DNA of 4,981 nt, taken from the IMG/VR virus record IMGVR_UViG_2648501787_000009; one strand, given 5' to 3'. The translations under genes and the position numbers were made by a program. Positions 1 to 4,981 of the stretch are shown in pieces; the stretch's first letter is position 1, and every line of letters begins with the position of its first letter. This DNA is from a virus (taxonomy: Duplodnaviria; Heunggongvirae; Uroviricota; Caudoviricetes). Under the pieces are notes generated by a model. It had not been told where the DNA came from. It worked only from the letters and a program-made list of their open reading frames with translations, and made no database searches.

Positions 1-207
1 CTTATCAGGGAAGGCGTAAATTTCTTTCGTCCACGGATTAAGGCCGTACTGGTTGGCGACGATCAACAATGCGATGAACTGCGCATCGCTGGCATCGCCT
101 TTAAATGCCGTCTGGCGAAGAGTGGTGATCAGTTCCTGTGGGTCGACAGAATCCATGCCGACACGTTCAGCCAGCTTCCCTGCCAGCGTTGCGAGTGCTG
201 TACTCAT
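1..207 (-). CDS. bet: Bet (Red-beta) single-strand annealing recombinase, N-terminal 69 codons only; the gene continues past the window start
   Basis: Minus-strand ATG at 207..205 translates MSTALATLAGKLAERVGMDSVDPQELITTLRQTAFKGD..., matching the remembered lambda Bet N-terminus. It begins 5 nt after the gam stop, as in lambda. The frame is open to position 1. Confidence 0.9.
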   Translation of the reverse strand, partial: MSTALATLAGKLAERVGMDSVDPQELITTLRQTAFKGDASDAQFIALLIVANQYGLNPWTKEIYAFPDK

Positions 208-212
208 CCGTT

Positions 213-509
213 TTATACCTCTGAATCAATATCAACCTGATGGTGAGCAATGGTTTCAACCATGTACCGGATGTGTTCTGCCATGCGCTCCTGAAACTCA
301 ACATCGTCATCAAACGCACGGGTAATGGCTTTTTTGCTGGCCCCGTGGCGTTGCAAATGACCGATGCATAGCGATTCAAACAGGTGCTGGGGCAGGCCTT
401 TTTCCATGTCGTCTGCCAGTTCTGCCTCTTTCTCTTCACGGGCTATCTGCTGGTAGTGACGCGCCCAGCTCTGAGCCTCAAGACGATCCTGAATGTAATA
501 AGCGTTCAT
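213..509 (-). CDS. gam: Gam, RecBCD inhibitor (98-aa GamS form)
   Basis: The 98-aa ORF ([21 protein letters not shown]...[10 protein letters not shown]) is near-identical to remembered lambda GamS. Stop TAA at 215..213. Gene order bet-gam-cIII matches lambda. Confidence 0.9.
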
Positions 510-619
510 GGCCGAACTCCTGAAAATGGCTGTGAAAATATCGCCCGCGAAATGCCGGGCTGATTAGGAAAACAGGAAAGGGGGTTAGTGAATGCTTTTG
601 CTTGATCTCAGTTTCAGTA

Positions 620-763
620 TTAATATCCATTTTTTGGGACTCCTGGCTGATTAAGTATGTCGATAAGGCGTTTCCATCCGTCACGTAATTTACGGGTGAT
701 TCGTTCAAGTAAAGATTCGGAAGGGCAGCCAGCAACAGGCCACCCTGCAATGGCATATTGCAT
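620..763 (-). CDS. cIII: CIII, FtsH-inhibitor that stabilises CII (47 aa; lambda CIII is 54 aa)
   Basis: ATG at 763..761 translates [47 protein letters not shown], matching lambda CIII through residue 46. AAGGAG Shine-Dalgarno lies upstream. It sits 72 nt downstream of the ea10 stop, exactly as in lambda. Confidence 0.85.
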
Positions 764-835
764 GGTGTGCTCCTTATTTATACATAACGAAAAACGCCTC
801 GAGTGAAGCGTAATTGGTATGCGGTAACGCCGCGC

Positions 836-1204
836 TCAGGCGGCCTTGATAGTCATATCATCTGAATCAAATATTTCTGATGTATCGATATCGGTAATTC
901 TTATTCCTTCACTACCATCCATTGGAGGCCATCCTTCCTGACCATTTCCATCATTCCAGTCGAACTCACACACAACACCATATGCATTTAAGTCGCTTGA
1001 AATTGCTATAAGCAGAGCATGTTGCGCCAGCATGATTAATACAGCATTTAATACAGAGCCGTGTTTATTGAGTCGGTATTCAGAGTCTGACCAGAAATTA
1101 TTAATCTGGTGAAGTTTTTCCTCTGTCATTACGTCATGGTCGATTTCAATTTCTATTGATGCTTTCCAGTCGTAATCAATGATGTATTTTTTGATGTTTG
1201 ACAT
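836..1204 (-). CDS. ea10: Ea10-like early protein (lambda ea10/ssb-like, 122 aa)
   Basis: The 369-nt ORF has the same length and relative position as lambda ea10. GAGGA Shine-Dalgarno precedes the ATG at 1204..1202. The product is acidic. Identity was recalled, not searched. Confidence 0.75.
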   Translation of the reverse strand: MSNIKKYIIDYDWKASIEIEIDHDVMTEEKLHQINNFWSDSEYRLNKHGSVLNAVLIMLAQHALLIAISSDLNAYGVVCEFDWNDGNGQEGWPPMDGSEGIRITDIDTSEIFDSDDMTIKAA

Positions 1205-1224
1205 CTGTTCATATCCTCACAGAT

Positions 1225-1250
1225 AAAAAATCGCCCTCATCTTGGAGGGC
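1225..1250 (-). terminator. Rho-independent terminator candidate on the leftward transcript, just upstream of ea10
   Basis: On the minus strand: GCCCTC-CAAGAT-GAGGGC stem-loop (1250..1233) followed by GATTTTTT (1232..1225). Confidence 0.5.
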
Positions 1251-1392
1251 AAAGAAGATTTCCAATAATCAGAACAAGTCGGCTCCTGTTTAGTTACGAG
1301 CGACATTGCTCCGTGTATTCACTCGTTGGAATGAATACACAGCGCTGTGTTTATTCTGTTGTTTGCGTGAAAATGAAATCCGCCTGAGCGGG

Positions 1393-2262
1393 TTATGACC
1401 ACTTTTTGTTTGGGTTTCGTTGGTGAGCGTGGTTTACAGGATTATTTGATATACCCCATAACTCTGACTCGCTTATCTCTACACGAGAGAAAGACCTGCT
1501 TTCTTTCAGTTCTTTTATAAACCTAGAACCTAAGATGACATCTATTGTACCAGAAAGTTCTTGTAAAAGATCTTTGTTTTTTCTGAGGAAGAAAATATCT
1601 TCTTTATATTTAATTTTTACATAGAATTTATTCTGTATTTTTAATATATCAAAGCATGGCAGATATCTATATCCCTCATATTTTCGCCACTGCTTAACAA
1701 TTATAACATCTTTTTCATTTACTGCATTAATCAGCCCAAGACCAAGTACAGGTATGAATATTCTATTGTCTGCCGAAAGCGTACAATTATCACCACCAGG
1801 CAAATATGTATAAATCATGTCGGAATTTTTATACGCATCAACGAATGCACGTAAGAAGCGTACATATTTTTGCCATCCGTTTATACCGAATTTACCATAT
1901 AAGTATTCTTTATTTGTTAGAAGAAAACTATTTGTATCAGGATCCTTATCTACAGACCTGTCGATAAGATCTCCAACTACGTTTACAAAGTCAAAGACAG
2001 AGTTTAATAAGAACAATTGTCTTTCAGTAGGGCGAATTTCAATTATGTAGCCAGGATGAAGACGATATTGCATCTGCTTACGAAGTATACCGAACGCTTG
2101 GGTCCGAGCATCTGAAAGCAACTTCTTGTCGCCATCGCCGTGAGCATTGTTTCTAATAAAACTGATATAATTTGCTAATTTTTCAGCCTCTTTTTTGTGT
2201 TTTTTTCGCTCTGATGCTGAGTCTATTGGTTTTGGTATGGACTTGTAATCAATCTTCTTCAT
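1393..2262 (-). CDS. Hypothetical 289-aa protein, no family recognised; AT-rich gene occupying the sieB/ral position between N and ea10
   Basis: Long uninterrupted minus-strand ORF. Preferred start is ATG 2262..2260 (MKKIDYK...), with GAGG 6 nt upstream. An alternative ATG at 2274..2272 overlaps the N stop as ATGA. Stop TAA at 1395..1393. Composition is visibly more AT-rich than the flanking lambda-like DNA and codon usage is rich in K, I, N, Y and F. No part resembles lambda Ral or any protein I can name. Confidence 0.7.
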   Translation of the reverse strand: MKKIDYKSIPKPIDSASERKKHKKEAEKLANYISFIRNNAHGDGDKKLLSDARTQAFGILRKQMQYRLHPGYIIEIRPTERQLFLLNSVFDFVNVVGDLIDRSVDKDPDTNSFLLTNKEYLYGKFGINGWQKYVRFLRAFVDAYKNSDMIYTYLPGGDNCTLSADNRIFIPVLGLGLINAVNEKDVIIVKQWRKYEGYRYLPCFDILKIQNKFYVKIKYKEDIFFLRKNKDLLQELSGTIDVILGSRFIKELKESRSFSRVEISESELWGISNNPVNHAHQRNPNKKWS

Positions 2263-2270
2263 TACGTACC

Positions 2271-2594
2271 TCATGCCAATGGAATGGATTCCCCTTTAAC
2301 CTTTTGTCTTCCTTGACAAGTTATACCGAACTCACCTGGCTTGCTATACCAAACTCGATGATTCTTGCGCTCAATACGTTGCAGGTTGCTTTCAATCTGT
2401 TCGTGGTATTCAGCCAGCACCGTAAGGTCTATCGGATTCAGTGCGCTTTCTACTCGTGATTTCGGTTTGCGATTCAGCGAGAGAATAGGGCGGTTAACTG
2501 GTTTAGCGCTTACCCCAACCAACAGGGGATTTGCTGCTTTCCATTGAGCCTGTTTCTCTGCGCGACATTCGCGGCGGCGTGTTTGTGCATCCAT
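2271..2594 (-). CDS. N: N transcription antitermination protein (107 aa, lambda-type)
   Basis: ATG at 2594..2592 translates MDAQTRRRECRAEKQAQWKAANPLLVGVSAKPVNRPILSLNRKPKSRVESALNPIDLTVLAEYH..., lambda N with a handful of substitutions. It lies 222 nt downstream of the inferred pL start, as in lambda. The longer track ORF 2271..2726 is the same frame extended upstream. Confidence 0.9.
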   Translation of the reverse strand: MDAQTRRRECRAEKQAQWKAANPLLVGVSAKPVNRPILSLNRKPKSRVESALNPIDLTVLAEYHEQIESNLQRIERKNHRVWYSKPGEFGITCQGRQKVKGESIPLA

Positions 2595-2751
2595 CTGGAT
2601 TCTCCTGTCAGTTAGCTTTGGTTGTGTGTGGGAGTCGTAGTCCTGAACGAAAACACCCCGCAATGGCACATTGGCAGCTAATCCGGATTCGCACTTCCGG
2701 CCAATGCTTCGTTTCGTATCACACACACCAAAGCCTTCTGCTTTGAATGCT

Positions 2752-2782
2752 GCCCTTCTTCAGGGCTTAATTTTTAAGAGCC
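2752..2782 (-). promoter_or_regulatory. nutL: nutL (boxA + boxB) N-utilisation site
   Basis: The minus strand reads GGCTCTTAAAAATTAAGCCCTGAAGAAGGGCA. boxB is GCCCTGAAGAAGGGC (plus 2752..2766) and boxA is GCTCTTA (plus about 2774..2782). The site lies between pL and N. Confidence 0.85.
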
Positions 2783-2815
2783 TCACCTTCAATGGTGGTC
2801 AGTGCGTCCTGCTGA

Positions 2816-2895
2816 TGGCTTAAAATTACAAGGAAGATTGTATGTTGTAAACAAGAAATATTGTAAAAAGGGGCGTGAAAAACAAACTCCATTGT
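2816..2895 (-). promoter_or_regulatory. pL promoter with 434-type OL operators
   Basis: Three 14-bp ACAA-N6-TTGT sites are present: ACAAGGAAGATTGT (2828..2841), ACAAGAAATATTGT (2851..2864) and ACAAACTCCATTGT (2882..2895). On the minus strand, -35 TTTACA (2851..2846) and -10 TAATTT (2828..2823) are 17 nt apart. The inferred transcript start is near 2816 (ATCAGCAGGACGCACTGACC..., the lambda N leader). Confidence 0.8.
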
Positions 2896-2945
2896 TTTTA
2901 AACGGAAAATAGTTTGTTTTTTTGTTATCGAGATTGAGGTGGGGA

Positions 2946-4298
<1,353 letters not shown>

Positions 4299-4306
4299 GA
4301 CATTCC

Positions 4307-4338
4307 CGCTCTTACACATCCCAGCCCTGAAAAAGGGC
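4307..4338 (+). promoter_or_regulatory. nutR: nutR (boxA CGCTCTTA + boxB GCCCTGAAAAAGGGC)
   Basis: boxA CGCTCTTA is at 4307..4314 and boxB GCCCTGAAAAAGGGC at 4324..4338, immediately downstream of cro as in lambda. Confidence 0.85.
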
Positions 4339-4351
4339 ATCAAAATAAACC

Positions 4352-4383
4352 ACACCTATGGTGTATGCATTTATTTGCATACA
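4352..4383 (+). terminator. tR1-region RNA hairpins in the cro-cII spacer (lambda tR1 is Rho-dependent)
   Basis: Inverted repeats ACACC/GGTGT (4352..4364) and GTATGCA-TTTATT-TGCATAC (4363..4382) lie between nutR and the cII ribosome-binding site. There is no clean U-tract. The function is assigned only from position in lambda. Confidence 0.4.
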
Positions 4384-4404
4384 TTCAATCAATTGTTATC
4401 TAAG

Positions 4405-4440
4405 GAAATACTTACATATGGTTCGTGCAAACAAACGCAA
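4405..4440 (-). promoter_or_regulatory. pRE (CII-activated promoter for repressor establishment), including the CII-binding direct repeats
   Basis: The minus strand reads TTGC-GTTTGT-TTGC (plus 4427..4440), the TTGC-N6-TTGC CII recognition repeats. An AAGTAT -10 candidate follows on the minus strand (plus about 4408..4413). The site overlaps the cII start, as in lambda. Confidence 0.7.
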
Positions 4441-4711
4441 CGAGGCTCTACGAATCGAGAGTGCGTTGCTTAACAAAATCGCAATGCTTGGAACTGAGAA
4501 GACAGCGGAAGCTGTGGGAGTTGATAAGTCGCAGATCAGCAGGTGGAAGAGGGATTGGATTCCAAAGTTCTCAATGCTGCTTGCTGTTCTTGAATGGGGT
4601 GTCGTCGACGACGACATGGCTCGATTGGCACGACAAGTTGCTTCGATTCTCACCAATAAAAAACGCCCGGCGGCAACCGAGCGTTCTGAACAAATCCAGA
4701 TGGAATTCTGA
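4418..4711 (+). CDS. cII: CII transcriptional activator (97 aa, lambda type)
   Basis: ATG at 4418 with AAGGA Shine-Dalgarno at 4402..4406. Translation MVRANKRNEALRIESALLNKIAMLGTEKTAEAVGVDKSQISRWKRDWIPKFSMLLAVLEWGVVDDDMARLARQVASILTNKKRPAATERSEQIQMEF matches lambda CII. The track ORF 4358..4711 is the same frame extended upstream. Confidence 0.95.
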   Translation: MVRANKRNEALRIESALLNKIAMLGTEKTAEAVGVDKSQISRWKRDWIPKFSMLLAVLEWGVVDDDMARLARQVASILTNKKRPAATERSEQIQMEF

Positions 4712-4733
4712 GGTTATTACTGGAACTATCAAC
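4653..4733 (-). ncRNA. oop: oop antisense RNA candidate with its terminator, overlapping the cII 3' end
   Basis: On the minus strand, a GC-rich hairpin (plus 4662..4685: AACGC-CCGGCGGCAACCGA-GCGTT) is followed by TTTTTTATT (plus 4661..4653). The position between cII and O matches lambda oop. The 5' end is placed by analogy only. Confidence 0.55.
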
Positions 4734-4743
4734 AGGAGTCATT

Positions 4744-4968
<225 letters not shown>

Positions 4969-4981
4969 AGCTATAACCCCG

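Follow-up and report, generated by a model that had tools for sequence, protein, structure and literature searches.

Gene content of a 434-type early-left and immunity region

The DNA analysed in this work, a stretch of 4,981 nt referred to here as the window, was found from its open reading frame (ORF) list and its sequence to cover the early-left (pL) and immunity region of an E. coli prophage, lambdoid and of the phage-434 type. The best megablast match among phage records was Escherichia phage 434 (OL657226/OL657227, 99.8%), and pairwise alignment gave 99.9% identity to this phage over positions 1..4884. Gene names were taken from the curated 434 annotation. The gene order is that of 434, namely bet, gam, cIII, ea10, a Nun-like gene, N, hex, cI434, cro434, cII and O, and the 98-aa gam protein is the same in both. 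The features of the window are as follows.

Minus strand: bet, 3' portion only (ORF list, 434 annotation)
213..509, minus strand: gam, 98-aa GamS form, intact (Pfam Gam, PF06064, E=2e-64, positions 1-98 of 98)
478..630, minus strand: 50-codon ORF ending ...HSGSS (ORF list, part of the 478..756 frame)
523..528, minus strand: haplotype marker 5' of the gam ribosome-binding site, TTTT for TTT and C for T at 528 (differences from 434 and lambda)
543..560, minus strand: terminator-like hairpin, GCCCGGCATTTCGCGGGC then GATATTTTCA (terminator-pattern scan)
585..635, minus strand: kil remnant, codons 32-47 plus the stop at 587..585 (tblastn of lambda Kil, 635..588, 100% identical)
620..763, minus strand: cIII, 47 codons plus stop (ORF list, Pfam match)
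625..635, minus strand: deletion junction, the lone kept copy of an 11-bp direct repeat, AAAAAATGGAT, present in the parents as two copies 98 nt apart (overlap of BLAST segments)
640..644, minus strand: former kil Shine-Dalgarno AGGAG inside cIII (read from the sequence; in the 434 record, OL657226, the kil ribosome-binding site is annotated at the equivalent position)
836..1204, minus strand: ea10 (ORF list, 434 annotation)
1393..2274, minus strand: Nun-like gene, 293 aa (ORF list; same annotation in 434)
2271..2594, minus strand: N (ORF list, 434 annotation)
about 2946..3350, minus strand: hex (ORF list, 434 annotation)
3347..3979, minus strand: 434 repressor, cI434 (ORF list, 434 annotation)
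Plus strand: 434 cro, cII and the start of O (ORF list, 434 annotation)
4885..4981, plus strand: end of an IS100-like (IS21-family) element in O (homology to 434 stops at 4884; window 4870-4981 is ~96% identical to the istB ends of IS100kyp-family elements)

Over 1..4884, the complete list of differences from 434 comprises a 98-nt gap, one base added at 523 and four substitutions (528, 876, 2567 and 2855). Unlike the window, phage 434 has these 98 nt, and with them an intact 47-aa Kil (annotated 'FtsZ inhibitor') and a 54-aa CIII, and it has neither the extra T 5' of gam, nor the IS in O, nor the R10C substitution in N. A laboratory lambda-imm434 hybrid or cloning vector was also considered and was ruled out, since the ea10-N region is 434-specific (with its Nun-like gene) and the sister contigs are chromosomal E. 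coli, at the lambda attachment site or at icd. The 293-aa protein encoded at 1393-2274 on the minus strand falls in phrog_12139, whose function is unassigned; over its final 20 residues, it matches HK022 Nun-like termination factors (phrog_5632, E=7e-5) at their C-terminal peptide. At oL2 (position 2855 of the window, 6952 of L002), the 434 reference record reads ACAATAAATATTGT, as against ACAAGAAATATTGT in the window and in most of the natural prophages examined (L003-L007, L013); the T at this site may be private to the laboratory stock of 434. The oL2 of L010 bears an additional change, ACAAGAAACATTGT.

The cIII gene encodes 47 aa rather than 54, as a previous reading of the sequence alone (the sequence-only reading) had noted and as the ORF list indeed gives. 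Residues 1-46 are identical to those of lambda and 434 CIII, the C-terminal SN(N/T)YGYPD being replaced by a single Y, and the protein matches the Lambda_CIII family (PF02061, E=1e-30) over profile positions 1-42 of 42. Residues 14-37 of CIII have been reported to be both essential and sufficient for its activity, the inhibition of FtsH (PMC1838920). A shortened CIII also occurs in L169 and five similar kil+ IMG/VR loci, where point changes stop cIII after 46 residues (...PKNG*) and Kil begins MDKKL, which shows that the last 8 residues of CIII are naturally dispensable or variable. Since residues 1-46 are kept, the whole Pfam profile is covered, residues 14-37 are present and a 46-aa CIII exists naturally, the 47-aa CIII of the window is probably still functional.

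The start of gam had been placed at 630, with cIII ending inside gam. This part of the sequence-only reading had to be abandoned, as the ATG at 630 corresponds to the annotated start of the 138-aa GamL of lambda, a legacy start which is frameshifted from gam in the window. gam itself starts at 509, and hence does not overlap cIII; it has its own Shine-Dalgarno (AGGAG at 521..517, 7 nt 5' of its ATG), it matches the 98-position Gam profile over its full length, and it is annotated in 434 as a 98-aa RecBCD inhibitor. The ATG at 630 is out of frame with gam owing to an extra T at 523-526 (TTTT, vs TTT in lambda). In terms of lambda's annotated 138-aa GamL, GamS represents residues 41-138 (PMC5218532).

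Unlike the situation annotated in lambda, the GamL frame is broken (into ORFs of 50 or 21 codons) or the extension is missing in the window and in many relatives, and the 98-aa form alone is conserved. Among IMG/VR loci with an ATG of the 630 type, the frame was open in 88 and broken in 56, the breaks in many relatives occurring through T-run and C-run length polymorphisms in the kil-gam leader (IMG/VR loci L015-L254). In ~77 loci, another gene module lies 5' of gam, and homology resumes just past the position of the kil stop codon. The 40-codon extension lies outside the Pfam Gam profile, which is exactly the 98-aa form, and the terminator-like hairpin (560..543), which is unaffected by the deletion, sits between the kil stop and the gam start, within the supposed extension. 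Taken together, the widespread TTTT variant, the proportion of broken frames, the module swaps and the hairpin show that the GamL extension is not conserved coding sequence. With regard to annotation, the 138-aa Gam label inherited from lambda is misleading for this phage group, in which the conserved gene is the 98-aa form.

Loss of kil between two copies of an 11-bp repeat

Kil is a peptide which blocks FtsZ-ring assembly, and which kills or filaments the host once pL is derepressed. In lambda, kil (encoding a ZipA-dependent FtsZ inhibitor) occupies the same locus and likewise overlaps the end of cIII. Its absence from the window, already noticed by the sequence-only reading, was borne out by tblastn, in which lambda Kil matched over residues 32-47 only. 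This remnant runs into the kil stop and has no in-frame start codon, the 93 nt for residues 1-31 being deleted, and the window contains no ORF of about 47 codons with its own start and the Kil core residues 4-38. No ORF of the window matched the Kil-matching part of any PHROG, while the control, lambda Kil against phrog_3924, gave 2e-36. A kil homologue was also sought elsewhere in the window and in 14-20 kb sister loci, where tblastn gave just the 16-residue remnant and nothing resembling Kil came out of the PHROG and Pfam scans of unassigned ORFs. In PHROG, the 89-position 'Kil protein' profile phrog_2461 is matched by the 47-aa CIII over positions 2-39 and by lambda Kil over positions 43-89. 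It looks like a cIII-kil read-through or fusion family, so that a match to it is no evidence for Kil. A 42-aa Kil variant (P0020), recorded on 269 contigs, may start at Met6.

The geometry of the junction had been correctly described, the cIII stop (TAA, 622..620), the 47 codons and the ATGGAT at 630..625 of the minus strand all agreeing with the sequence and the ORF list. The distance from the cIII start to this ATG is 133 nt, vs 231 nt in lambda J02459 (33463 vs 33232), so that the loss is exactly 98 nt, as previously estimated. Pairwise alignment with lambda and with 434 (OL657226) indeed gave a single clean 98-nt gap, with no further indel nearby. The two BLAST segments obtained against either phage share exactly 11 nt, at 625..635, i.e., the kept copy of the repeat. 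The proposal that the junction fell on a short repeat common to the kil start and the old gamL start was thus upheld, and the two copies are identical at 11 of 11 positions in 434-type parents: both 434 and the nearest kil+ relative (L013) carry AAAAAATGGAT twice, as a perfect 11-mer with a spacing of 98 nt. In L002, the repeat finder placed the pair at 4624-4634 and 4722-4732 (spacing 98), and this pair was the sole perfect direct repeat of at least 11 nt in the 421-nt stretch examined. In lambda, unlike the 434-type parents, the left copy is imperfect (10 of 11), with AAAGAATGGAT at the kil start vs AAAAAATGGAT at the gamL start; written in gene orientation, the lambda sequence is CCCAAAGAATGGATCAAAC where kil begins and TATAAAAAATGGATATTAAT where the old gamL begins.

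The 98-nt spacing was constant in all 147 kil+ loci checked, which differed in the match between the two copies as follows.

Perfect 434-type 11-mer: 81/147 kil+ loci
Other perfect 11-mer: 6/147 kil+ loci
10-nt match: 20/147 kil+ loci
Lambda-type match (7+3 nt): 40/147 kil+ loci

Deletion between short direct repeats, through replication slippage or short-homology deletion, is a well-known process, classically described in lacI of E. coli. The window shows its signature, as the parents (434, L013) have two copies identical at 11 of 11 positions, the product has one, and the number of nucleotides lost is the same as the spacing of the repeat. As in the classic cases, there are no filler bases at the junction and the mechanism is no different; the locus stands out by a repeat that is drawn from two coding contexts and conserved at a fixed 98-nt spacing across a phage group. 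In the parental phage, the first copy would lie at the kil start within the end of cIII, and the second within kil codons 32-35, where the legacy GamL ORF begins. Slippage during replication, or recombination over short homology, would then misalign the two copies and remove one of them together with the intervening 87 bp, a putative mechanism to which the geometry of the locus points. The mechanism of kil loss is ordinary, and the deletion is real but rare.

The direction of the change was also considered. According to the sequence-only reading, kil might alternatively be a lambda-specific insertion. This was contradicted by its presence in 434, in the nearest relative (99.9% identical), in 153/153 IMG/VR loci with a matching cIII and, for each allele, on 1000 contigs or more. 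In a broader version, kil would have been gained by both lambda and 434, the window keeping an ancestral kil-less state, and a duplication on either side of the insert might, in principle, account for the two 11-bp repeats. Against this, the repeat halves are themselves coding sequence (cIII PKNG and kil YKKWI) and not insertion scars, codons 32-47 of kil and their stop are still present in the window, and the kil-less allele, present on about 20 contigs, is nested in haplotypes 99.9% identical to kil+ phages. An ancestral kil-less state is thus highly improbable: given this nesting, the remnant and a frequency hundreds of times lower, the kil-less form is derived.

An assembly or sequencing artefact was given equally little credence. 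The allele is indeed seen in draft assemblies and one metagenome scaffold, with no complete genome among its carriers, which is the pattern that an artefact might leave; however, the same junction is found in 10/10 retrieved contigs, which represent three haplotypes and were produced by different pipelines (NCBI, ENA, Logan), and the flanks are otherwise perfectly colinear. Repeat collapse would moreover not be expected, an 11-bp repeat being far below assembler k-mer sizes. A derived 98-bp deletion in a 434-type prophage is our preferred explanation of the locus as a whole, including origin, consequences and context, with a probability of roughly 0.88.

Regarding function, residues 4-38 form the essential helix-turn-helix core of Kil, and deletion of any core element abolishes its activity (PMC11762379). 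As residues 1-31 are gone, the window is null for Kil. The gene is lost, and no Kil peptide can be made from this locus; the phenotype that should follow is inferred from the published work on lambda. A functional analogue of Kil might be encoded in another part of the prophage, beyond the regions examined. On induction of defective (replication-defective) lambda prophages, kil causes filamentation and host death, whereas engineered kil- lambda (a start-codon mutant, or an in-frame deletion of codons 20-26) neither filaments nor kills; kil- lambda is viable, with a slightly shorter latent period (PMC3961180). The natural 98-bp deletion should behave like these engineered mutants. It differs from them in being natural, in removing codons 1-31, in trimming cIII by 7 residues and in fusing the kil start signals to the downstream leader.

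As a result of this fusion, the former kil Shine-Dalgarno now stands in front of the ATG at 630 and of the 50-codon ORF, which consists of the kil start signals and the 5' part of the legacy GamL extension, and which overlaps cIII at one end and reaches 32 nt into gam at the other. This ORF (478..630) matched no family in Pfam or PHROG, its exact protein occurs on only 17 contigs by exact-protein look-up, and it is probably a by-product of the deletion. Its labelling as 'host-nuclease inhibitor protein Gam' by some pipelines is an artefact of the deletion and of the frameshifted leader. With a kil ribosome-binding site and an ATG opening an ORF across the gam start, the translation of gam might be modestly altered, a speculative effect of the relocated kil start signals. 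The TTTT/C variant in this leader is shared by L013 and L014, both kil+, and by at least 120 IMG/VR loci, and the lambda-type variant likewise occurs in at least 120. Being common in kil+ relatives, TTTT/C is not linked to the deletion. A compensatory role for the extra T, acquired after the deletion so as to stop a GamL fusion, was ruled out on the same grounds, and by its absence from L003 and L012, which carry the deletion.

Frequency and origin of the deletion allele

Contigs with the deletion allele were found solely through exact-protein look-up of the 47-aa CIII, which listed 20 contigs, all named E. coli; overall, about 20-26 draft contigs carry it. The protein was indexed in 26 blocks of the collection, of which the look-up covered the 24 whose contigs were longest. 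In the same look-up, each of two 54-aa CIII alleles and each Kil allele was on at least 1000 contigs. Searches with the junction itself used a 40-nt query, as a 76-nt query against complete genomes could not by itself separate deleted from intact loci. This 40-mer cannot seed on intact loci, and it detected all ten deleted loci in a local positive control with the same BLAST settings. It matched none of 5,426 complete E. coli genomes and none of 50,697 phage records. An exact junction 35-mer gave no match in the genome-representative set; in IMG/VR, neither the exact 35-mer nor a degenerate junction pattern was found, and the degenerate pattern was likewise absent from JGI metagenomes.

The intact locus, by contrast, is widespread. 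The flanking sequence occurs in 1,441 complete E. coli genomes and, among the matches listed, all were kil-annotated, with the two halves 98 nt further apart than in the window. The survey of IMG/VR relatives returned full-length kil in every locus with a matching cIII, and more than 99% of relatives still have the gene. These counts do not support the suggestion that stably carried prophages typically lose kil, as none of the 1,441 locus-bearing complete E. coli genomes is deleted. Among resident prophages with this locus, those that keep kil form the vast majority, which indicates that its loss is clearly not favoured in general. The deletion allele is young and rare.

The deletion is carried by three haplotypes. 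The 434 type is represented by L003, which has all ~45 haplotype markers of kil+ 434 and 3 private SNPs (SNP table), and which differs from 434 by 7 mismatches over 8.7 kb. The L013 type is represented by L005 (GCA_049894145.1), which has the haplotype markers of kil+ L013, a prophage of E. coli 19KM2326N, with 8 mismatches over 7.9 kb; L005 belongs to the lineage of the window, from which it differs by 1 mismatch in 4,976 nt, with the same truncated O. The lambda type is represented by L012, which has lambda-type markers and ral. In this last locus, an ENA metagenome scaffold, the same kil deletion is seen at about 590-650, and ea10 is wholly missing, about 400 nt corresponding to 823-1222 of the window being lost. 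On either side of the junction, discriminating sites occur at a distance of 100-240 nt, with no informative site between -113 and +235 relative to the cIII start. As for location, L003 and L005 adjoin ybhC, while L004 is a deleted prophage at icd with a different integrase, and alternates 434-like and L013-like tracts.

Two accounts of this distribution may be proposed. In the first, a single deletion event would have been followed by spread among lambdoid prophages through homologous recombination. The junction is the same in all ten loci, mosaicism is pronounced in lambdoid prophages (as L004 illustrates), and a conversion patch of 340 nt or less is possible given the lack of informative sites within ~340 nt of the junction. 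This account nevertheless requires two crossovers within 340 nt or less, at least twice, into 434-type and lambda-type backgrounds, while each deleted haplotype has a kil+ sibling at 0.1% difference or less; moreover, as the repeat is present in most relatives, independent slippage would give the same product. A single origin followed by spread therefore seems somewhat improbable. In the second account, which is the simplest reading of the haplotype comparison, the same repeat would have given rise to the deletion on at least two or three occasions, and we lean slightly towards such repeated origin. A wider proposal, for which we regard the odds as about even, is that the 11-bp pair at 98-bp spacing acts as a recurrent hotspot from which kil has been shed independently at least three times in public assemblies, selection on the lysogen favouring the loss and selection at the phage level purging it, so that the allele is kept rare and young. 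If the recurrence is real, the locus offers a small clean case of phage-host conflict, in which kil can be removed in one step, via a built-in repeat, when the lysogen benefits. In any event, a well-studied phage toxin gene is represented in the window by a natural null allele, and the identical precise deletion is found on several prophage backgrounds. The current understanding of lambda biology is unchanged by this finding.

Prophage decay and possible selective value of the loss

The window has the marks of a defective lambdoid prophage. O is interrupted at 4884/4885, after codon 47 (O fragment 4744-4884), leaving a truncated ORF of 65 codons (4744..4941), and the IS in O implies that the prophage is replication-defective. 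The sister locus L005 is integrated next to ybhC (pectinesterase), a neighbourhood which we take to be the lambda attachment region. In addition, the substitution at 2567 changes R10 of N to C within the arginine-rich boxB-binding (RNA-binding) motif (MDAQTRRRECRAEKQ). This change is private to the window and L005, R10 being kept in 434, in L013 and in all other deleted loci, and it may weaken antitermination in the pL operon.

The order of these events can be approached through the other deleted prophages. O and P are intact in L003, L004 and L006-L010, which indicates that the deletion is not confined to defective prophages and that any selective value is putative. Among them, L006-L010 have the same haplotype as the window, with O intact and N wild-type; in the window lineage, the kil deletion thus probably came first and decay later.

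In a lysogen whose O is interrupted and which is unable to complete lytic growth, deletion of kil would amount to relief of Kil toxicity. As kil kills the host upon derepression of a replication-defective prophage, a lysogen with the deletion should better survive a transient or abortive induction. The deletion may instead be neutral decay or hitch-hiking, with no adaptive relief from Kil toxicity. The allele is very rare and each occurrence is apparently recent, most prophages retain kil, and the window lineage is gathering further lesions (IS in O, N R10C), all in line with neutrality. In the same direction, the division inhibitors KilR and DicB are kept by well-known cryptic prophages (PMC12482147, PMC6832061). 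On the other side, kil is the very cause of host death in derepressed replication-defective lambda prophages, so that its loss should raise survival (PMC3961180), and some selection would make it easier to account for an allele that apparently recurs on several haplotypes. Neutral decay or hitch-hiking falls, in our judgement, a little short of even odds.

Division inhibitors of another kind were met at the same place. In many relatives, among them L014 (365-571) and IMG/VR loci such as L020, L016 and L038, an unrelated 68-aa gene (MVHQHYGTQTV...) stands in place of cIII-kil, and its RefSeq name is 'phage encoded cell division inhibitor protein'. The slot 5' of gam appears to be an exchangeable site for division inhibitors.
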